Shown: positions 22,393-33,743 of the stretch, in pieces
Layout of the letters: each line of letters begins with the position of its first letter
Position numbering within the stretch: the stretch's first letter is position 1
Assembly (NCBI GenBank): GCA_965203325.1
Contig: OZ241875.1
Location: forward strand, 4,000,001-4,064,000
Length of the DNA: 64,000 nt
DNA from: a bacterium
GTDB taxonomy: Bacteria; UBA8248
Direction: 5' to 3'
The notes under the pieces: model-generated
Databases searched by the model: none
What the model saw: only the letters and a program-made list of their open reading frames with translations
Told to the model about the DNA's origin: nothing
Translations under genes and position numbers: made by a program

Positions 22393-23943
22393 GTGATGAC
22401 GGAAAAAATGAGTTCCTGCGTCGAGATGTACGGCGTCAGCAAGTCCTTCGGGGAAGTCCGCGCCCTGGACGCGGTCGACTTCGAGGCCGCAGAGGGGGAG
22501 ATCCACGCCCTCCTGGGCGAGAACGGCGCGGGCAAGACCACGCTCATGAACATCCTGAGCGGCCTCTACCGCATGGATGAGGGGCAAATCGCGATCGAAG
22601 GGCGCGAGGTGGACATCCACTCTCCCCAGGATGCGATCGCGGTCGGCGTCGGGATGGTCCACCAGCACGTGGAGCTGATCGGCAACTTCACCGCGCTCGA
22701 GAACATCCTGCTGGGCCGCGAGGGTTCGCGCTGGCGGCTCGACGTCGAAGCCCGGCGCGGTTCGGTGGAGGAACTTGCGGCGAATTACGGCCTCTCCATC
22801 CCGCTGGATGAGGGGGTGAAGACCCTGCCTGCGGGCATCCAGCAGAAAGTGGAGATTTTGAAAGCCCTCTACCACGGCGCGGACATCCTGATCCTGGACG
22901 AGCCGACGACCATGCTGACCCCCCACGAGGTGGACGGGCTGTTCACCATCCTCAAGTCTTTCGCCAAGGGCGGGCTGACGGTCGTCTTCATCACGCACAA
23001 GATCCAGGAGGTGCTGGACAACTGCGACCGCATCACCGTGTTCCGAGGCGGGCGCAAGATCGACACCATCCCCCGCGAGGAGGCCACCCGCGAAATACTC
23101 GTCCAGATGATGATGGGCGAGCGCGGCATGCCGCCCGAGGGCGAGCGGCCGGCCGGACCCTCGGCGGCTCTGGAGGGGGGTCCCGCTCTGTCGGTGCGGG
23201 GGGTGCGCACCTCGGCGAAGTGGGGGGTGCCGCTCAAGGACGTCGCCTTCGACGTCCCCCGGGGGCTCATCGTCGGCATGGCGGGCATCTCGGGAAACGG
23301 CCAGAAGGAACTGGCGGAAGCCCTGGCCGGGTTGATCGAAACGGAAGAGGGGGAGGTTCACCTGGACGGTGAGCAAGTATCAAACCTCTCGGTGGCCGGG
23401 CGCATCGCGCGGGGGATGAGCCTCCTGCCGCAGGACAGGATAGAGGAGGGGATTCTGCCGGGCCTGAGCCTGGCGGAGAACTTCGTGCTCGGACTCCACC
23501 CCCACATCTTCAGGCGGCGCGGCGTGTTCGAGCGCGAGGCCGCCTTCGAGCTCGGCAGGAACGCGATTGCGGAATTCAACATCTTAGCTAGAAACGAGCA
23601 CGTGCCGGCCGCGCACCTCTCGGGCGGGAACATCCAGAAGACCATCGTGGCGCGCTCGGTCATGCTCGCCCACAAGACGGGCGGGAAGGTGATGATCGCG
23701 AACAACCCCACGCGCGGGCTGGACGTGATGGCCGCCTCGTTCGTGCACGGCCGGCTGCGCGAGCTTCGCGCGGGCGGGGCGGGCGTGCTGCTGATATCGG
23801 AAGACCTGGACGAGCTGTGCCTGATGAGCGACCGCATCGTCGTCATCTATGCGGGGGAGATTCTCGGCGCCTTCGACGGCCCCGAATACGACATCTACCG
23901 GATAGGCGCGCTCATGGCGGGCCACAGAGAAGAGGTTTCCTGA
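22393..23943 (+). CDS. ABC transporter ATPase (double domain)
   Basis: GENGAGKTT, ILDEPT, LSGGNIQK, PTRGLDV, ISEDLDE. Confidence 0.93.
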   Translation: MMTEKMSSCVEMYGVSKSFGEVRALDAVDFEAAEGEIHALLGENGAGKTTLMNILSGLYRMDEGQIAIEGREVDIHSPQDAIAVGVGMVHQHVELIGNFTALENILLGREGSRWRLDVEARRGSVEELAANYGLSIPLDEGVKTLPAGIQQKVEILKALYHGADILILDEPTTMLTPHEVDGLFTILKSFAKGGLTVVFITHKIQEVLDNCDRITVFRGGRKIDTIPREEATREILVQMMMGERGMPPEGERPAGPSAALEGGPALSVRGVRTSAKWGVPLKDVAFDVPRGLIVGMAGISGNGQKELAEALAGLIETEEGEVHLDGEQVSNLSVAGRIARGMSLLPQDRIEEGILPGLSLAENFVLGLHPHIFRRRGVFEREAAFELGRNAIAEFNILARNEHVPAAHLSGGNIQKTIVARSVMLAHKTGGKVMIANNPTRGLDVMAASFVHGRLRELRAGGAGVLLISEDLDELCLMSDRIVVIYAGEILGAFDGPEYDIYRIGALMAGHREEVS

Positions 23944-23944
23944 G

Positions 23945-25009
23945 ATGGCGGCGGGCGTGAGCGAGAAGAAAAAGATCGCGATGGAGTTCGCCGTCACCTA
24001 CGCGGCGGCGGGGGCGCTGGCGCTCGCCTGCGGGGCCGTCTTCATCGTCGCCTTCGGCGGCGACGTGCTCGTCGCGCTCGGCACGGTGCTTCGCTCCTCG
24101 CTCGGCACGTGGGGCGGGTTCGCGCAGACGCTCAACAAGTTCTGCCCGCTCCTGCTCGGCTCGCTCGCGGTGGCCTTCGGGATGCGGGGCGGGCACTTCA
24201 ACATCGGCGTGGACGGGCAGATCTACGCGGGCGCCATCGGCATGACGGGCACGGCCTTCGCGCTCGAGGGCATGAACCTCCCCTGGCCGGTCTTCGTGCC
24301 CCTGGGGATTCTGGGCGGAATCGCCGGCGGGTGGTTCTGGGGCTTCATCCCCGGCATCCTGCGCGTGCGTTTTCAGGTGAGCGAGATTTTCGTGACGGTG
24401 ATGCTGAACTTCGTCGCGCTCTATCTAGTGGACTACCTCGCGAACGGCCCCTGGAACGATCCGCTCGCGGGAGAGGCCATCTCGCTCCCGATCCCCGACG
24501 CCTCGGTGCTGCCCCAGGTGATGCCGAGGGCCGGCGCGCACGCGGGCTTCATCATCGCGCTGGCGGCGGCGGTCGGCATGTACTTCTTCATGACGCGCAC
24601 CATCGCCGGCTACGAGATACGCGCGGTGGGCGACAACCCCCGCGCCGCGCGCTTCGGCGGCATCAACGTCGCGCGCGTCACGCTCATCATCATGCCGACC
24701 TGCGGCGCGCTCTCGGGTCTCGCGGGGGCCATCGAGGTCTCGGGCTTCCACCAGAGCCTGTTATTGGGCATCAGCGGTGCGGAGGGCGCCCCCAACTACG
24801 GCGCGATGGCCATCCTCATCGCCGTCATCGGGCGCAACAACCCGCTCGGCGTCACGATAGCCGCCGCGGTGTTCGCCGTGCTCGTCTCGGGTTCTGATTC
24901 CTTACAGCGCAGCATCGGCCTCCCCGGCGCGGCGGTGTTCGTCTTCCAGGCGATCATCGTGCTCACGGTCGTCTTCGTGCAGGCGCGGCGGAGCATCAAG
25001 GCGGGGTAG
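23945..25009 (+). CDS. ABC transporter permease (nucleoside/BMP type)
   Basis: FNIGVDGQ, SEI..TVMLNF, GYEIRAVGDNP.AA. Confidence 0.9.
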   Translation: MAAGVSEKKKIAMEFAVTYAAAGALALACGAVFIVAFGGDVLVALGTVLRSSLGTWGGFAQTLNKFCPLLLGSLAVAFGMRGGHFNIGVDGQIYAGAIGMTGTAFALEGMNLPWPVFVPLGILGGIAGGWFWGFIPGILRVRFQVSEIFVTVMLNFVALYLVDYLANGPWNDPLAGEAISLPIPDASVLPQVMPRAGAHAGFIIALAAAVGMYFFMTRTIAGYEIRAVGDNPRAARFGGINVARVTLIIMPTCGALSGLAGAIEVSGFHQSLLLGISGAEGAPNYGAMAILIAVIGRNNPLGVTIAAAVFAVLVSGSDSLQRSIGLPGAAVFVFQAIIVLTVVFVQARRSIKAG

Positions 25010-25081
25010 GGGGGAGACCACCGCCAGCGAGATATGCAATTACTTCCCCCTTGAGGGAATTCCCCACCGACGAAAGAAGGA

Positions 25082-25327
25082 TTCACTCCCCCCTTGAGGG
25101 TCTGGCTTCCCGAGGGGAAAGCCAGACGATGAAGCCGAGCGTTTTTGCGAAGGCTGATGCGGTGGGGGGTAAAACGCGTTTTATCGCCATCCGAATTATC
25201 CCCCCCACCGATTCGCTTGCGGGCTTACGCCCTTACCTCATCGACTCCCCCTCAAGGGGGGAGTGAAGTCCATTCTACGGGGAGAGGGGTTGCGGTTTTG
25301 TAGGGGCGGTTCGCGAACCGCCCCTAC
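25082..25327. repeat. Family-B element (25082-25267) plus GTAG REP (25300-25327)
   Basis: TTCACTCCCCCCTTGAGGG...CCCTCAAGGGGGGAGTGAA; GTAGGGGCGGTTCGCGAACCGCCCCTAC. Confidence 0.75.
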
Positions 25328-25364
25328 GGGGTCGGTGGCCGGGATGACGAACGATGGCCTGCCC

Positions 25365-26468
25365 CTACACCGCCCGTACGACCGCCGCGACGGGGCCGCC
25401 GCCGGGAGGCCCCTGGTGTTCGGCACCGCCCGAGACGTAGGTCATCGTGTCGCCGACGATGGATGACACCACGGCGTTCACGACAGAGCGGGCGTGGCGC
25501 GTGTTGTTGATGTCCGAGTCATCGAGCATCGTGTGCCGCCGCCCGCGCACCAGGCCGTCGGGGGAGGCCTCGCACTTGGCGAAGACGTTCACGACGCGCG
25601 CGCGCTGCTCGGGCGCCAGCGACCACTCGAACGCGACCCCTGCGTTCACGATGGCCTCGCGCACGGCGTCGCGGTCGATGGCGTCTCCCATCACGCTGTG
25701 GCCGACGACGAGGTCGCCGCCCCAGGCCGCGCTGTTACCGATGACCATCGCCTCGTTGCACATGAGCTCGATTCCCGCCGAAGTCGAGGCGACGCCGGAT
25801 TGGAGCGACCAGTCCGCACAGATCACCTCATCGCTCAACCGGCTCTCGGCCACCTCGCCCGCCGCCAGGGCGACCCCCAGCGCCGATGCGCCGCGCGAGT
25901 AGCCCATCGATTTATACGTGTCCTCCGTGCAGACGCTCTCCCCGCGCCTGGCGGCGTCCGCCATGCGCTCGCCTGTCAAGAGCGGGCACTTCACCTGGAC
26001 GAAGTGCAGGTCTTCGGTGCTCTCGATCTGCGCCTCTTTCATGAGCCTTCGCACGAGGTTCGCCGTCGCGCGCACCTGCGCCATGCGGCCCATTTCTTCG
26101 GGCAGGAAATCCGCCGTGTGGCCCGAGGCGATGGCGAGGCGCTTGGCGCGCCCGTCGCCCGCGCCGTTCTCCGACTTCGTGAACACGGAAAAATGCGGGC
26201 ACATGACGCCTTCCGTTCCGCCGGACATGATAAGGGCGATCTGCGCCTCCACCTCCTCGCGGGTCTTGCCCATCGCGCGTGAGAAATAATCGAGCAGGAC
26301 GAAGTTGCTGAACCCGCGCGAGAAATCGTTCACGCAGCCGTTGCCCTCGGTCTTGCCCATGATGCCGACGACATCTTCCGCCCGGCATTCGCCCCCCTCG
26401 ATGAGAGCGGCCACGCCTGAGATGTCGTCGGGCGAGTCCATCGCCACGCGGAACAAGTCGGCCTGCAT
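25365..26468 (-). CDS. atzD: Ring-opening amidohydrolase, cyanuric acid hydrolase (AtzD/TrzD)-like
   Basis: GKTEGNGCVNDF, MSGGTEG, FVQVKCPLLT, STSAG, YVSGGAEHQGP; these match cyanuric acid hydrolase rather than barbiturase signatures. Confidence 0.85.
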   Translation of the reverse strand: MQADLFRVAMDSPDDISGVAALIEGGECRAEDVVGIMGKTEGNGCVNDFSRGFSNFVLLDYFSRAMGKTREEVEAQIALIMSGGTEGVMCPHFSVFTKSENGAGDGRAKRLAIASGHTADFLPEEMGRMAQVRATANLVRRLMKEAQIESTEDLHFVQVKCPLLTGERMADAARRGESVCTEDTYKSMGYSRGASALGVALAAGEVAESRLSDEVICADWSLQSGVASTSAGIELMCNEAMVIGNSAAWGGDLVVGHSVMGDAIDRDAVREAIVNAGVAFEWSLAPEQRARVVNVFAKCEASPDGLVRGRRHTMLDDSDINNTRHARSVVNAVVSSIVGDTMTYVSGGAEHQGPPGGGPVAAVVRAV

Positions 26469-28316: not shown

Positions 28317-28348
28317 GGAAACCCCACACCCTCCTTCTCCGCTCCCCC

Positions 28349-28429
28349 CAAACCCTCATTCCCCGCCCGCGTCAAACCCGCATTCATCGCTCCCGTCAAA
28401 CCCTCATTGATCAATCGCGTTTGACCCCC
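28349..28429 (+). repeat. 24-bp-period tandem repeat ending in TCGCGTTTGACCCCC
   Basis: CAAACCC(T/G)CATT at 28349, 28373 and 28397. Confidence 0.65.
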
Positions 28430-28509
28430 GCTCCCCGATAATTCATAATCGAACCATCACTGGATCATGCGACCCGTTTCAGAAGTTGCGCGCAAGTTCA
28501 AATAAAGGG

Positions 28510-28539
28510 TTGACAAAACCGGAAAACTTGCCGCACTAT
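28510..28539 (+). promoter_or_regulatory. Putative sigma70 promoter for the lipoprotein leader
   Basis: Perfect TTGACA at 28510-28515, 18-nt spacer, CACTAT at 28534-28539, in an AT-rich patch. Confidence 0.6.
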
Positions 28540-28714
28540 CATATATGTCAAGCAACAGACGTGAGCAGTAATCACAGGGCCGCCCGCTCGATGCAACACT
28601 GACCCATCCGTGAAGAACGGAGAGAGCGGGAACCCACGAGAGAACCTGCTCTCACGAATTGCCTGACAGCCCGGAAGACGACGACCCAGAAGGTTCCGGG
28701 CATAAGCAGTAAAA

Positions 28715-29379
28715 ATCACGAGGCTAGAGGACTCAACCCACGATGCAGCACGCCACAAAACCCCCTCCAGTTTCGTGATCAATAGAAGAGCAGGAAAGCG
28801 GCAGGCCCGGCGGAAGCCGGGGAAGCAGTAAATCACGAGGCCAGAGGACTCAACCCACGGCGAACCACGCCACCAATCCCCCTCCAGTCTCGTGAAGCGT
28901 AAGGCCCGGCGGCCCGCGCAGTCGGCGGCGCGCCGGGAAGAACGGCAAGCCCGGCGAAAGCCGGGAGATGAAATATCACGAGGCCAGAGGACTCAACTCA
29001 TGATGCACCACGCCACAAATCCCTCTCCAGTCTCGTGATCGATTCAAGGAAAGGCCCGGCAGGAGCCTGAAACGAAAAATTCGGCTCGGGGCCAGGAAGT
29101 TTTTTATCACGAGGCTGGAGGACTCAAACATCATGAATCCTGACCAGAATCCCACACCAGTCTCGTGGATAAGCCGGTCACCGGCCCGGGCGCGTGAGTC
29201 CGGGCCGGCGGCCGCGCGCTCCGGCCCCGGTTCGATGATTCGATGAAACGATAGAAGCCCGATAACGAAGGATAAGGAAAGTCGGAAAGTCAAAGAAAGG
29301 AGGTCAAATCCGAACACTACAGTTTTGTTGGTTGCAAAGCTCTTTAATATCACGAGACTAGGAGGACTCAAAAGTGATG
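28715..29379 (+). repeat. Array of four ~65-nt hairpin units plus a fifth half-unit that is the lipoprotein RBS
   Basis: ATCACGAG(G/A)C..GAGGACTCAA at 28715, 28832, 28975, 29106 and 29349; 3' arms CCAGT(C/T)TCGTG ending about 28779, 28896, 29039 and 29170. Confidence 0.9.
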
Positions 29380-32223
29380 AAACTTGACAGAAACAAAATC
29401 TTTTCATTCATGCTGGCGGCTGCCTTCGCGCTGACGCTGGCGGGCTGCGGTGGCGGCGGCACTGCTACTGCGCCTGACGATGATGGCGGCACGATAGTGG
29501 AGACACCTTATAGCAAAGCGGTTGCGGCAATCGCGGCAGCCGAGACGGAGGCAGATGCGCGGGCGGCGGTCACCACGGCAGTGGCCGCCGGCATCTCGGG
29601 CACGGAGCTCCAGGACCTGAACACGAAGGTCGCCGAGCGCGTGGAGGCCCTGGCCCTGATGGCCCGGATCGATGCGCAGAAGATGGCGATGATGAACGCG
29701 GCCGGCATGATCGACACGTCCGACCTGACGACTCAGGCTGCGATCAATGCGGCCGAGGCCGCCATCGCCGTGCTGAAGAGGGCGATCGCCGCCGCGGCCG
29801 ACGTCGACGACACGTCGATGTACGACGCGCAGGTGACCGCGGCCGAGACAGACGTGGCGACCGCGCAGAGCGCTCTGGACCATGCGGCCCAGACGATGGC
29901 GCTCATGAATGCCGTCGATGACCTTCAGGCAATCGACCTGGCCGACCTGTCGACAAAGGAGAAGATCGACGCCGCCCAGGGCGCCATCGACGCGCTTCAG
30001 ACGGCGCTGGACAACGCGACAGAACTGAGCGCTGCCGAGAAGACCGCGGCCATGACCGAGCTGGGGACCGCCAATCGGGCCGTGGCGAGTGCGCAGGGCA
30101 GGTACGACACCGCAGCCCAGAAGAAGGCGCTCGCCGATGCCGTTGCCACCCTGGCCGCTCTCGACCTCGACAACCTGATGACGCAGGCGCAGATCGACGC
30201 GGCCGTGGCAGCCATCACCGGGGTTAATCTGGCTCTGCAGTCGGCGACCAATCTGACCGACGCCGAGAAGCTCGACGCCACCGTCGACGTGACGGTGGCC
30301 CAGCGGAAGGTGGACCGTGCGGAGACGGCTCTCGACGAGAATGTCGGCCGGCAGCGCATGGCGCTGATGGAAGCCGGCACGGCCCTTGCCGCCATCGACC
30401 TCGACGATCTGGACACGCCGGAAAAGATCACCGCGGCCAACGATGCCGTTAACGCGCTCAAGGCGGCGCTGGACGGGGCGACCCACCTGAGCGATTCCGA
30501 AAAGGCCACGTACCAGACCCAACTGAACGAGGCCACGGAGGACGTGAGGATGGCGCAGACCGGCATGGACCGCGCCGGTCGCATGATGGCCCAGCGCACG
30601 GCGATCACGAGTGCCGTCACGATGGCCCGCACTGCGGTCGCGGGTGTGAGCGACACCTCGACCGATAGCGAGGTTGCTGCTGCGGACGCGGCGGTTGCCG
30701 CTCTCAAGAAGGCGATCGACGATGCGGTAGACCTTCCCGAAGGCGATACCGACGTTGCCAGCGCCAGGGGAACGCTCGCCACGCTCGAGCCGCAGCTAGC
30801 CGCCGCCAAGACGAGCCGCACGGCCGCGTTGGAGGAAAAGGCCAAGGCGGATCGGGCGGCCATGGCGAAAACCGGCAAGGATCTGCACGCGGCGCTGGGG
30901 CCGCCTGCTGCGGCTGACACGACCGCGCTGGACAACATCGAGGCACTAACAGCAAGCTCCTTGGTGACATCAGGGGCGACACCAGGCCTTACGATCGACG
31001 CCGTTCAAGGAGCGGGAACGCTCCACGATACTGATGCTGCCGGAAACCCAGACGCCGTGCGCCTCAATCCTGGCGATTCCGCCGGATCGTTGGGCGGTTG
31101 GGAAGGCACGAACTATGCCCGTTCCCAGGGTAGTGGTAGCGCGATGGTCACCAACGAAGCCAGGATCTACACCAACAAGGGTCCAGGGACGACCCGGCCC
31201 TTTAGCAATACAGAGACAAACGGAAAGTACTTGCTCATAACCGCATCGGGCGCGACTAAGGGTCACGTGCTGCTGGGCGATACCACTTCGGGGCAGGAAA
31301 GCCCGGTCACGCGCGCCAGTGCTCCCGCCTTCACGCACTCGGGAACACAGACTCACCAAGTGCCCGACGAGAGCGACGCATTCTACACCAGCGGCACCTA
31401 CGACGGCGCGCCTGGGCGATTCCGTTGCGTGGACACGTCTGCTACGGATCGTTGCTCCTCGACCAACGACGGCACAGGCAGGGTGAGTGCCTTGGGTGGA
31501 ACTTGGCATTTCAAGCCCGATGCCGGCGCGATGGTGATGGAGGCCGATGCCCACTACCTGTATTACGGCTGGTGGGTGAGTAAGGACGATGAGGGCAAGC
31601 CGACGGCGGCCAGCGCGTTCGTGGGTAGATTTGGGACCCCCGGTGATGACTCCGCCACTGACGATGATGGCCTCAACGCTGGATGGACCGGTGGCTTTGA
31701 CGCTCTCACCGGCGCGGCGGCTCTTACCGGTTCGGCGACCTATTCTGGCAATGCCGCCGGCAAGTTCGCCATAAGCAACCCGTTCGACGGCACCGGCAAC
31801 GGCGGTCACTTCACGGCGGACGCCGAGTTTCAGGCGAAGTTCAGTGGTTCTTCTGGCGTCGGTATATCCGGCACCATCGACAACTTCCGGCTGAACGACG
31901 GGACCGAAGACCCGGGCTGGAGCGTGTCGCTGGGGCTCAGGGGCTTTGGCACCGACGGAGCCATCGGTGCTGCCGTGGACATTCCCACGACGACTGTTAA
32001 TGAGTCAGCGGCTGGCGCCGGCACGGTCTGGACCATTGGCGGCAATTCGGCGGCGCGGTCCGGCATCTGGGGCGGCACGATGTATGAAGAGACGCCGGGT
32101 GATCCCAGTGCTACCGGACCCGGCGACGGCAGCAACATCCCGGACACGGTGACCGGAACCTTCTACTCCGAGTTCAGCACCATCGGCCGGATGGTCGGCG
32201 CGTTCGGCGCGGAGAAGCAGTAG
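29374..32223 (+). CDS. Surface lipoprotein with Ala-rich helical repeats and a C-terminal transferrin-binding-protein-like beta-barrel
   Basis: Lipobox LAGC followed by GGGG; ~77-aa repeats (IDL.DL.T...I.AA..AI.AL..AL..AT.L...EK); YLYYGWW, GSATYSGNAAG, FTADA, ISGTIDNF, terminal MVGAFGAEKQ. Confidence 0.8.
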   Translation: MMKLDRNKIFSFMLAAAFALTLAGCGGGGTATAPDDDGGTIVETPYSKAVAAIAAAETEADARAAVTTAVAAGISGTELQDLNTKVAERVEALALMARIDAQKMAMMNAAGMIDTSDLTTQAAINAAEAAIAVLKRAIAAAADVDDTSMYDAQVTAAETDVATAQSALDHAAQTMALMNAVDDLQAIDLADLSTKEKIDAAQGAIDALQTALDNATELSAAEKTAAMTELGTANRAVASAQGRYDTAAQKKALADAVATLAALDLDNLMTQAQIDAAVAAITGVNLALQSATNLTDAEKLDATVDVTVAQRKVDRAETALDENVGRQRMALMEAGTALAAIDLDDLDTPEKITAANDAVNALKAALDGATHLSDSEKATYQTQLNEATEDVRMAQTGMDRAGRMMAQRTAITSAVTMARTAVAGVSDTSTDSEVAAADAAVAALKKAIDDAVDLPEGDTDVASARGTLATLEPQLAAAKTSRTAALEEKAKADRAAMAKTGKDLHAALGPPAAADTTALDNIEALTASSLVTSGATPGLTIDAVQGAGTLHDTDAAGNPDAVRLNPGDSAGSLGGWEGTNYARSQGSGSAMVTNEARIYTNKGPGTTRPFSNTETNGKYLLITASGATKGHVLLGDTTSGQESPVTRASAPAFTHSGTQTHQVPDESDAFYTSGTYDGAPGRFRCVDTSATDRCSSTNDGTGRVSALGGTWHFKPDAGAMVMEADAHYLYYGWWVSKDDEGKPTAASAFVGRFGTPGDDSATDDDGLNAGWTGGFDALTGAAALTGSATYSGNAAGKFAISNPFDGTGNGGHFTADAEFQAKFSGSSGVGISGTIDNFRLNDGTEDPGWSVSLGLRGFGTDGAIGAAVDIPTTTVNESAAGAGTVWTIGGNSAARSGIWGGTMYEETPGDPSATGPGDGSNIPDTVTGTFYSEFSTIGRMVGAFGAEKQ

Positions 32224-32250: not shown

Positions 32251-32270
32251 CCGGGGCTTCACGGCCCCGG
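32251..32270 (+). terminator. GC hairpin just after the lipoprotein stop
   Basis: CCGGGGC-TTCACG-GCCCCGG; weak U-tract. Confidence 0.4.
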
Positions 32271-32340
32271 GGCCGGGGCGTGTTTCATAAGTTGAGAAGC
32301 AGGAAAGGGCAGGTTGCCGGGAAAGAGCGAGTGACCCTTG

Positions 32341-32813: not shown

Positions 32814-33233
32814 CTATTTATTCTTCGAGTGGTCTTGAATCATTTCTCCTGGACTGCTTCTTAAATCAACATCCGGAACAATCTGCCGAGGCTTGAACGT
32901 GATCCGGTGATGGAAGACGCTCACGTCCGCCGTGTCGAGTTGCTCCGCAAAATACGTCACATTATCGCTCAACCCCAAAAAATGTTTCTTGAAACTGTCG
33001 CTCCCCAGCTTGCATGTAACTTCGAGCTGGTTCTCCTGATCCTCAATCGAGCACCGCCCCTCGATTGTCAACATATAAGTATCCGTAATCCCGTTGTAGA
33101 ATACGATTCTCCGGTCGATCTCGAAATTGTCCGCCGACTTCGACAGATTATACGATGCGATATCCGCATCGTCCTGACACCCCGCTGCCAGAAACATCAA
33201 GAACATGGCAATGGCCAACCGCTTTATCCGCAT
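32814..33233 (-). CDS. Small lipoprotein resembling a widespread phage-associated family
   Basis: Lipobox AAGC, then ADIASYNLSKSADNFEIDRRIVFYNGITD.YMLTIEGRCS...KKHFLGLSDNVTYF; lower GC than neighbours. Confidence 0.7.
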   Translation of the reverse strand: MRIKRLAIAMFLMFLAAGCQDDADIASYNLSKSADNFEIDRRIVFYNGITDTYMLTIEGRCSIEDQENQLEVTCKLGSDSFKKHFLGLSDNVTYFAEQLDTADVSVFHHRITFKPRQIVPDVDLRSSPGEMIQDHSKNK

Positions 33234-33743
33234 GGCGTCTTTTCCCCGATGGCGTTTTCCGCACATTTTCAGTTCCCTCCCTCATTTCTCTCCTCTGGTA
33301 ACGTATTGAATCCCCATGAAAAGAGGGGCCGCGCCTCGTCAAGCGTCCAGGCGCCGCGAACCCCCCTCCTCGGGGTTATCGAAAAAGTCCTTGCGGGTCG
33401 GTCGGGATTCTATTGCAGGCGGCGGTCCTTCCCCGGGACCGCCCCACGCATACATGCGGGTCTTGTCGTGGGTGAAAAAATCAGGGTCATCTGGAACTCT
33501 CGTGGACGCCCAGTATAAGAAGGTGTTCCGCGCGTCGTCAAACATCCGCGGGGCGGGGGCGCATTTCCCCGCATTTGCCGTACTCCGTGAAATCGCGTAC
33601 TCGGGTATCGTGCGCGCGAAGCGGGGAAACGGCGATCCCTGCTCGAACCATCGGGAGCGATCGCCCCGGGGAGAGGAGGCTTTCTGATGGAATCAGGCGA
33701 GGGGGCGAGGGTGGAAGCGGCGAATCCCCCAATGCCCTTGTCA

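Follow-up and report, generated by a model that had tools for sequence, protein, structure and literature searches.

Why would a gene be preceded by several copies of its own ribosome-binding site (RBS), each of them followed by a segment that is complementary to that very site? This question is raised by a locus within a 64,000-nt stretch of contig OZ241875.1 (assembly GCA_965203325.1, positions 4,000,001 to 4,064,000 of the forward strand; hereafter the window), which stems from the uncultured bacterial lineage UBA8248, whose records are labelled Nitrospinota. Here, four tandem hairpin units stand ahead of a lipoprotein gene (29374..32223; the gene and all stranded features of its leader lie on the plus strand), with 5' arms that copy the RBS of the gene and 3' arms that represent an anti-RBS. 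An initial annotation, made from the sequence without database searches, had offered two explanations, namely a strand-exchange switch acting on this gene in cis or an array that is cut into small RNAs. We consider the chances to be roughly even that competition in cis between n anti-RBS arms and n+1 RBS-type arms sets the accessibility of the RBS, and with it translation.

The layout of the array was confirmed by inspection of the sequence and by automated repeat detection, which placed repeat families D1-D3 and D5 at 28715, 28832, 28975 and 29106 and a copy consisting of the 5' arm only, which is the translation start of the gene itself, at 29346-29361; a further family (D8) aligns unit 4 with the true gene start (82% over 28 nt, through the ATG). 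The 5'-arm pattern ATCACGAGRCNNGAGGACTCAA has four matches in the window where 0.01 would be expected, a number that none of 100 shuffles reached. Units 1 to 3 are of one kind (type A). Unit 1 (28715..28779; 85.9 bits with the covariance model (CM) described below, hairpin of -19.2 kcal/mol) has the RBS copy as its 5' arm, an AUG in the loop and a 3' arm whose anti-RBS includes the anti-Shine-Dalgarno (anti-SD) motif CCUCC; unit 2 (28832..28896) lacks the AUG, has an inner GGCG/CGCC stem and carries the strongest anti-RBS; and unit 3 (28975..29039) scores 88.7 bits. Unit 4 (29106..29168, type B) reads CCCACACCAG where the other units have CCCCCTCCAG, so that the anti-SD is lost, as had been seen initially, and it shows an extended GCUGG/CCAGU pairing and CGUGG at its end. 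The fifth 5'-arm copy, ATCACGAGACUAGGAGGACUCAAAAGUGAUG (29349..29379), is the true RBS, with its Shine-Dalgarno (SD) sequence at 29361-29365, a GUG at 29374 and an AUG at 29377. The linkers measure about 53, 79 and 67 nt and do carry the CCCGG...CCGGG stems that had been ascribed to them.

It had been claimed that the 3' arm of unit 2 pairs better with the RBS of the gene than with its own 5' arm, and calculated duplex energies bear this out: 10 pairs, one bulged base and 5 further pairs with the RBS amount to -27.4 kcal/mol, against -22.0 kcal/mol for its own arms. The same preference is predicted for unit 1 (-25.6 vs. -22.5 kcal/mol) and unit 3 (-25.4 vs. -23.0 kcal/mol), and the opposite for unit 4 (-21.0 with the RBS vs. 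-24.2 with its own arm). Among the 12 genomes in which we found the array, 24 of 27 type-A units are predicted to form the stronger duplex between 3' arm and RBS (-24.4 kcal/mol on average, own arms -22.4 kcal/mol), as are 5 of 11 type-B units. The type-A exceptions are unit 3 of genomes G008 and G022 (a U-to-C change favours the own arm) and unit 2 of G012. The clearest hint, in our view, that the match of 3' arms to the RBS is maintained comes from four type-B units (G011, G018, G021 and G026), whose 3' arm CUAGUCUCGUG pairs perfectly over 11 bp with the RBS segment CACGAGACUAG; against its own arm this variant is weaker or equal, and the own stem is weakened to G.U in three of the four.

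When whole leaders were folded, the minimum free energy (MFE) structure had the RBS paired with an upstream 3' arm in all 12 genomes, the partner being unit 1, 2 or 3 depending on the genome (unit 2 in the window), and the equilibrium probability that the SD is unpaired ranged from 0.008 to 0.37. The leader of the window folds better than its shuffled versions (z = -6.8; none of 20 was as good). Two global registers, one with all pairing inside the units and the RBS open, the other shifted so that each 3' arm pairs with the next 5' arm and the last one with the RBS, differ by -16.3 to +6.3 kcal/mol, and in G005 the energy of the shifted register equals that of the unconstrained MFE. Heuristic direct-path barriers from the RBS-open to the RBS-paired state, calculated from constrained folds in four genomes, came to 5.1-13.9 kcal/mol in 11 of 13 unit/genome cases and to 20.2 and 29.3 kcal/mol in the others. 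With a complementarity of 15-16 bp between 3' arms and RBS and with competing 5' arms, both recurring in 12 genomes, the leader would belong to the class of cis-acting anti-RBS or alternative-pairing elements.

How far the array extends beyond this locus was examined with the exact pattern and with a CM built from 38 units. A pattern search with up to three mismatches in the window's own genome (G000; 4.39 Mb on the single contig C1) returned the four units and one 5'-arm-like site at C1:2479327, and with the CM at E ≤ 10 only the four units scored above 18 bits. That additional site (L005:1499-1534), a lone two-mismatch ATCACGAGGCTATAGGACCCAA with 10 bits in the CM and with neither a 3' arm nor a lipoprotein gene, is probably due to chance or a relic. 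With both methods, 12 of the family's 42 genomes, including the window's own, proved to have the array ahead of this gene. All 12 belong to one genus, where 11 of the 22 other genomes have it, while it occurs in none of 19 genomes of eight other genera; in the phylum the count is 12 of 51. Of 15 stretches retrieved from 185,579 species genomes, 13 come from metagenome-assembled genomes (MAGs) of this group (two titled 'Nitrospinota bacterium'); the other two, one match each in a MAG of Symploca and one of Gaiellaceae, are taken as due to chance. Metagenomes contributed only two further loci, both on contigs with three units each that adjoin the RBS motif in the same layout. Sequencing runs labelled as sponge metagenomes contain 25-34% of the sampled words of the stretch, from which we draw no conclusion on habitat. 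Each genome has one array locus, with two to four hairpin units followed by the RBS copy of the lipoprotein gene, so that motif searches across the own and related genomes find the array before this gene only; a repetitive extragenic palindromic (REP) or mobile intergenic repeat, which would be scattered genome-wide, was rejected on this basis.

The order of modules is common to these genomes: a promoter region, a 5' domain, a hairpin termed H0, one to three type-A units (each with the anti-SD CCUCC or CUCUCC), one type-B unit, GC-rich hairpins, a purine-rich stretch and the RBS, with type B as the final unit in 11 of 12 genomes. The 21-nt RBS core CACGAGACUAGGAGGACUCAA is invariant in 12 of 12 genomes, as is CACGAGACTAGGAGGACTCAA. 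Identity is 0.85 in the 5' arm, 0.91 in the 3' arm and 0.75 in the loop of type-A units, and 0.89, 0.95 and 0.71, respectively, in type-B units. Substitutions within units mostly change A-U to G.U (at two pairs, in four alignment rows each) or G.U to G-C (in three rows) as read on the plus strand, a pattern that would fit an RNA helix transcribed from that strand.

We therefore propose, conditionally, that the approximately 830-nt region from promoter to gene is a structured mRNA leader which would control translation in cis through competing pairing partners: n anti-RBS segments (the 3' arms, four in the window) would face n+1 RBS-type segments, i.e., the n decoy 5' arms and the true RBS. During transcription each 3' arm would be captured first by the decoy 30 nt upstream, so that local hairpins form, the RBS stays free and the gene is translated. 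As the true RBS is predicted to be the better complement, strand exchange could then move a 3' arm onto it; alternatively, the register might shift throughout the array, each 3' arm moving onto the next 5' arm and the last one onto the RBS. In the RBS-paired state the SD and the bases upstream of it would be masked and translation would stop. The balance would depend on copy number and arm strength, and might be biased by the 5' domain, by GNRA hairpins (both described below) or by a factor or condition. Most likely, the array would have originated by tandem duplication of an ancestral segment composed of anti-RBS, linker and RBS, since duplication of such a gene start would give exactly the observed units at each junction. 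The exchange in vivo, its direction and its trigger are what we infer from these features.

The switch suggested by the initial annotation thus finds backing in computation and conservation (the 24 of 27 type-A units, the 12 of 12 folds and the closeness of the registers), and not in covariation of the units, which was not significant: 81.5% of 574 cells are paired, a value matched by 469 of 500 shuffles, and no covariation is detectable because the stems are too invariant to test. Further points weigh against competition in cis. The own arm is favoured in three type-A and six type-B units, and the mean duplex advantage of about 2 kcal/mol ignores the entropy cost of a loop of 200-650 nt. Opening of a 32-nt segment around the RBS is calculated to cost 7.3-15.3 kcal/mol, and since 10 array-less paralog leaders give similar values (7.1-11.9 kcal/mol), the magnitude of the opening energy is not diagnostic; what is special in these models is the long, defined and conserved partner of the RBS, not the size of the opening energy. 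Barriers are low, so that a long-lived kinetic trap is not predicted, and all energies are those of nearest-neighbour models on long RNAs, with folds of 600-960 nt being unreliable. Moreover, the AUG found in 20 of 27 type-A loops is not explained by competition, and the contigs of an RNA library that cover parts of the leader may represent DNA carry-over.

Some of these points would be met if the local hairpins that form first in transcription simply persisted. The array would then be a duplication product whose role is to stabilise or protect the 5' end, or to insulate by neutralising the anti-RBS permanently, with no switching and an RBS that is open in vivo. This would agree with the lack of covariation in the units, with an RBS opening cost no larger than in the paralog leaders, with a unit number that varies from 2 to 4 among species and with the shielding of anti-RBS sequences by local structure described in a preprint (bioRxiv 10.1101/2025.11.27.690947). 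It leaves unexplained, however, the better match of the 3' arms to the true RBS in 24 of 27 type-A units, the CUAG variant of type B that improves the RBS match and weakens its own stem, and an identity of about 90% in the arms while the protein diverges to 25-73%, and we regard static hairpins as a doubtful reading, albeit one with a real chance. The AUGs in the loops raise another possibility, i.e., that ribosomes start at a freed decoy SD and AUG, unwind the 3' arm, maybe pause at the Pro codons of the anti-SD and thereby open or close the RBS. Indeed, an ATG lies 11-14 nt past GGACTC in 18 of 27 type-A units, with an in-frame stop at the end of the 3' arm (TGA, replaced in frame by TAA in G012 unit 2), giving mini open reading frames (mini-ORFs) of 11-12 codons of the form M-x-H-A-T-K/N-P-P/S-P-V-S-stop, e.g., MQHATKPPPVS; the type-B frames are open over 33-47 codons in 11 of 11 units; and diverged copies of the hairpin in G012 retain (G/A)TG AAG AAG CGC GCC GCA AAA CCC ... 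TGA. On the other hand, 7 of 27 type-A units lack the ATG and carry 1-nt indels, 2 of 27 are frameshifted into 41-codon frames, the variable sites of type B lie in hairpin loops and fall on all codon positions (25:23:22) rather than on third positions, the Pro codons follow automatically from CCCCCUCC, and the strongest anti-RBS unit of the window has no AUG at all. These frames are probably left over from the gene start that was duplicated, and ribosome-mediated control through them appears unlikely. An arrest peptide encoded by an upstream ORF was also rejected, as the likeness of the type-B sequence TPVSWIS to the SecM motif is undermined by the non-coding pattern of substitutions.

The repeats could also matter as DNA. 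Direct repeats of 117-143 bp might undergo unequal recombination, whereby copy number would tune a variable surface antigen, and leader plus signal peptide might serve as an anchor for swaps of the mature part of the protein. In favour of such a device are the unit numbers of 2-4 among species, mature parts that are unrelated or 25-73% identical behind a near-invariant signal peptide, the 11 matches to the C-terminal domain in the own genome, and the situation in G017, where two paralogs outside the leader locus match the C-terminal domain of the window at 65-66% and the leader-adjacent gene at 36-50%. Yet the RNA-library contigs yield no copy-number variant within a population, their joints (85% likeness) fitting the arrays of relatives, and recombination does not explain the hairpin complementarity and the G.U-compatible changes; as an account of the array we think it improbable, although it can coexist with an RNA mechanism. 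The second proposal of the initial annotation, small RNAs cut from the array whose 3' arms act in trans on this gene or on paralogous lipoprotein genes, fared worst. A/U-rich single-stranded stretches (AAGCAGUAAAU) do lie between stable hairpins, and a CCUCC anti-SD could contact any SD. In the own genome, however, the specific complement CACGAGACU is found at this gene only, as is the prefix CACGAGACT targeted by the 3' arms; the starts of 10 paralogs carry the different RBS context TATTCAGGAGGACTCAC, without the ATCACGAGACT prefix, and their leaders have no homology to the array by BLAST. In addition, the arms are self-sequestered and no intrinsic terminator lies inside the array. Action in trans is thus highly improbable in our view.

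Competition in cis, the reading we prefer, would take place within a leader that has further conserved structure. Its first element is a 5' domain of about 120 nt (28547..28667), with a closing helix GUCAAGC (28547-28553)/GCCUGAC (28661-28667) and an inner helix CCCGCU/AGCGGG. This domain has covariation support, with the usual caveats of relatedness and of a structure drawn from the very sequences on which it is assessed: pairs form in 92.3% of cells, none of 500 shuffles reaches the pairing or the covariation score, and two pairs of the closing helix show compensatory changes (UA 7/CG 5; AU 6/GC 3/GU 2). Hairpin H0 (GCCCGG...CCGGGC, 28669..28701; helix 6, 91.7% paired) follows immediately 5' of unit 1, and all 12 genomes have a hairpin like it ahead of their first unit. 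Ahead of units 2 and 3 there are the GNRA hairpins CCCGGC-GGAA-GCCGGG (28806..28821) and CCCGGC-GAAA-GCCGGG (28950..28965); of the 15 internal type-A units, 14 have CCGGC-GNRA-GCCGG ahead of them, with five loop sequences in all, every one of them GNRA, a variety that suggests selection on structure. Unit 4 is followed by GC-rich nested hairpins (29173..29231; GCCGG/CCGGC and CCGGCCCGG/CCGGGCCGG, inverted repeat I1), where variable sites are concentrated in the hairpin loops, and then by a purine-rich, weakly structured stretch that ends in a U-rich tract (29232..29348). The latter includes a second SD-like sequence, AAGGAGGU (GGAGG at 29299-29303), as well as AAAGGAGGT(C/T)AA, which is kept also in the 5' untranslated regions (UTRs) of paralogs, and might possibly serve as a ribosome standby region. 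GUCAAG of the 5' domain (28547-28552) is complementary to codons 3-5 of the gene, CUUGAC (29383-29388), and pairs with them in the whole-leader MFE; most relatives have ACTCAC in place of these codons, and this pairing is probably not conserved. One could imagine the 5' domain as a sensor, be it for a ligand, a protein or a condition, that sets the pairing state of unit 1, from where a register shift would propagate like dominoes to the RBS some 650 nt downstream, with the GNRA hairpins organising the steps, but we hold such a relay to be decidedly unlikely.

Upstream of the 5' domain, the TTGACA promoter element of the initial annotation is present at 28510-28515 and conserved in 12 genomes. 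Its distance to the possible -10 elements CACTAT (28534-28539; 18-nt spacer) and TATCAT (28537-28542; 21-nt spacer) does not make it a textbook sigma-70 promoter, and a consensus promoter scan did not report the site at 28510. The scan did report a candidate distal promoter, TTGACC-17 nt-CATAAT (28421..28449; 10 of 12 matches), and a similar TTTGACC...CATAAT is visible in the leaders of relatives. Between the two promoter-like sites lies the palindrome GAAGTTGCGCGCAAGTTC (28482..28499, inverted repeat I2), which may have a regulatory role as a candidate operator; AAGTTGCGCGCAAGTT-like sequence is present in other genomes' leaders. A 24-nt tandem repeat (CAAACCCTCATTCCCCGCCCGCGT-like), present in four overlapping copies, precedes the promoter region at 28325-28420, with an inverted GTTTGAC at the end, and relatives have CGTCAAAC(G/C)CTC repeats in this place; the repeats are possibly transcription-factor sites. 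The consensus scan found no terminator-like site on the plus strand inside the leader. A terminator-like hairpin, GCCCCGGGGCCGGGGC (32264..32279), is located 3' of the lipoprotein gene, and relatives have the similar CCCGGGGCCGGGG after theirs. Contigs of a metatranscriptomic library from a related strain cover 28672-28833 with three differences as well as 29208-29457, across the RBS, and one of them has a loose end that continues upstream as far as the 5' arm of a type-B unit. Transcription of the leader is thus only weakly hinted at, given that DNA carry-over is possible; the library consists of contigs only, which do not show RNA ends, and uncovered parts are uninformative. ORFs on the minus strand of the leader (28498-28836 and 28976-29407) were discarded as genes, having no Pfam match and frames that would be broken by the differences in unit number among genomes.

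The gene behind this leader encodes a protein of 949 aa that starts with MKLDRNKIFSFMLAAAFALTLAGC and has an Ala-rich N-terminal half. Lipoprotein signal peptides are recognised by the lipobox rule, and the signal peptide of this protein ends in such a conserved lipobox, LAGC (...FALTLAGC|GGGG); all 11 leader-linked genes encode nearly the same one. The gene product matched no model of Pfam or NCBIfam above cut-off. The C-terminal 349 aa have at least 288 homologues, none with a Pfam domain and the few named ones called 'hypothetical protein'. At the level of the fold, which in TbpB, HpuA and fHbp combines a handle with a beta-barrel, the TbpB-like surface lipoprotein of the initial annotation is nevertheless supported: an AlphaFold2 model of these 349 aa (mean predicted local distance difference test score, pLDDT, of 82) retrieved with Foldseek, among the top PDB matches listed, nearly exclusively TbpB, NHBA, HpuA, fHbp, hemophilin or the Slam-dependent PmSLP, with a best E of 2.4e-4 and a probability of about 1.0, at template modelling (TM) scores of only 0.2-0.44. 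A single Slam/SlipAM homologue (PF04575, 95.5 bits) at C1:1776843-1777712 (L099), beside a paralog and away from this gene, suggests a Slam-type surface-display system in the lineage. The own genome has 11 matches to the C-terminal domain, including the gene itself; one match, at C1:1409821-1410732, has an internal TAG. At least 10 paralogous lipoprotein genes have almost the same signal-peptide segment and resemble each other in a conserved proximal 5' UTR (AAAGGAGGTTAATC...AGGAGGACTCAC), near C1 positions 1411585, 2585247, 1713744, 1308141, 2673002, 1830966, 2582706, 3272551, 2766046 and 1780365. Mature proteins linked to the leader range from 486 to at least 1306 aa and are 25-73% identical, with several pairs unalignable and others often only partially alignable. 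Because almost invariant signal peptides are joined to such divergent mature parts, and in view of the identities found in G017, the module of leader and signal peptide and the mature part appear to have had different histories. In the neighbourhood, a convergent gene of 150 aa on the minus strand (32814-33266) matches Phage_VG64 (PF25682, E 2.8e-53), and further upstream (22393-26468) genes for the ATPase and permease of an ATP-binding cassette transporter next to an AtzD/TrzD-type ring-opening amidohydrolase (PF09663, E 2.5e-148) look like a cyanuric-acid or barbiturate-type catabolic cluster.

Does the leader belong to a known family of regulatory RNAs? The initial annotation had recognised no riboswitch, T-box or CRISPR, and likewise no Rfam family reached its gathering score in the window or in the 12 genomes, nor was there a match to the ROSE or fourU RNA thermometer models in either. 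The best Rfam match, c-di-GMP-I-GGC on one linker hairpin (22.9 bits vs. a threshold of 59), was rejected as an aptamer, being confined to the locus of the window, absent from the other linkers and from 11 related leaders, and without conserved closing pairs. The remaining matches in the 12 genomes are microRNA-like and spurious, caused by REP-like palindromic repeats (CCCCCTCAAGGGGGGAGTG; GGACAGGCACGGAGGCCTGTCCCTACG) upstream of relatives' leaders (L006:2278-2365, L007:2789-2968, L016:615-737). A sponge for, or a leader bound by, CsrA/RsmA was dismissed, since PF02599 has no match in the 95.5%-complete single-contig genome, the control being positive in E. coli, B. subtilis and T. maritima. 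The most divergent array genome, G012, has three single, diverged unit-like hairpins (30-32 bits; L100:271-337, L101:740-811 on the minus strand, L102:297-364) 30-90 nt upstream of other lipoprotein genes, which belong to a different family (MKSTKRL...AACGGGG, with Pro/Thr-rich linkers). Outer and inner stem are kept in two of three folds, with z-scores of +1.0 to -0.5 and no usable covariation; the hairpin module may thus be older and wider than the array.

Alternative hairpins that gate a downstream RBS, and that can be remodelled by a ribosome in an upstream frame, are familiar from ermC and cat attenuation and from coat-replicase coupling in MS2. Those systems are defined by a translated leader peptide, whereas here 9 of 27 type-A units have no mini-ORF or a frameshifted one, and the substitutions show no coding-type pattern. 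In hok mRNA, too, local structures formed during transcription yield to a long-range pairing that silences the RBS; unlike this leader, hok has single elements and 3' processing, with neither RBS decoys nor a tandem array. Tandem hairpin units with CCUCC-type anti-SD motifs also occur in the alphaproteobacterial 'cuckoo' or CcsR RNAs, which present the anti-SD in loops and regulate many mRNAs in trans, whereas here it lies in a stem, paired with the RBS copy of one gene, in that gene's own leader. Closer in target is the meningococcal fHbp mRNA, whose translation is controlled by two anti-RBS sequences (Loh et al., 2016, PMC4999090), i.e., again by more than one anti-RBS in the mRNA of a surface lipoprotein, and fHbp structures are among the top Foldseek matches of our protein. 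The fHbp anti-RBS sequences lie inside the ORF, with neither decoy RBS copies nor a tandem array; in the present leader the anti-RBS arms are found 200-650 nt upstream of the RBS, and every one of them already has an RBS copy as its local partner. For B. subtilis, repression by anti-RBS 8-mers placed hundreds of nucleotides from the RBS, and its loss when local structure encloses them, has been described by Gill et al. (bioRxiv 10.1101/2025.11.27.690947). Such distal pairing of anti-SD-like sequences with an RBS, repressive unless local structure cancels it, would be common to both cases. According to this preprint the 8-mers are synthetic and natural genes are depleted of them, in contrast to the natural 15-16-nt arms found here, which are conserved, multiplied and each provided with a dedicated shield. 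Full-text literature searches turned up neither tandem RBS-decoy/anti-RBS hairpins nor any account of the lipoprotein leader of this lineage.

While masking of an RBS by a complementary segment is textbook knowledge, a conserved array of anti-RBS segments pre-paired with decoy RBS copies is not described in Rfam, and the leader is probably an undescribed way of setting the amount of a protein. If competition in cis is correct, it would represent a natural strand-displacement or competition circuit, similar to multi-input toehold designs, with an output that is tunable by copy number; were the domino-like relay true as well, this would be a relay or rheostat architecture undescribed for any riboregulator. 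For RNA biologists the locus would offer a new structured leader. For the uncultured lineage that carries it, such a circuit would control a hypervariable, probably surface-exposed TbpB-like lipoprotein, and it would hint at an unusually tight post-transcriptional control of one member of this family.

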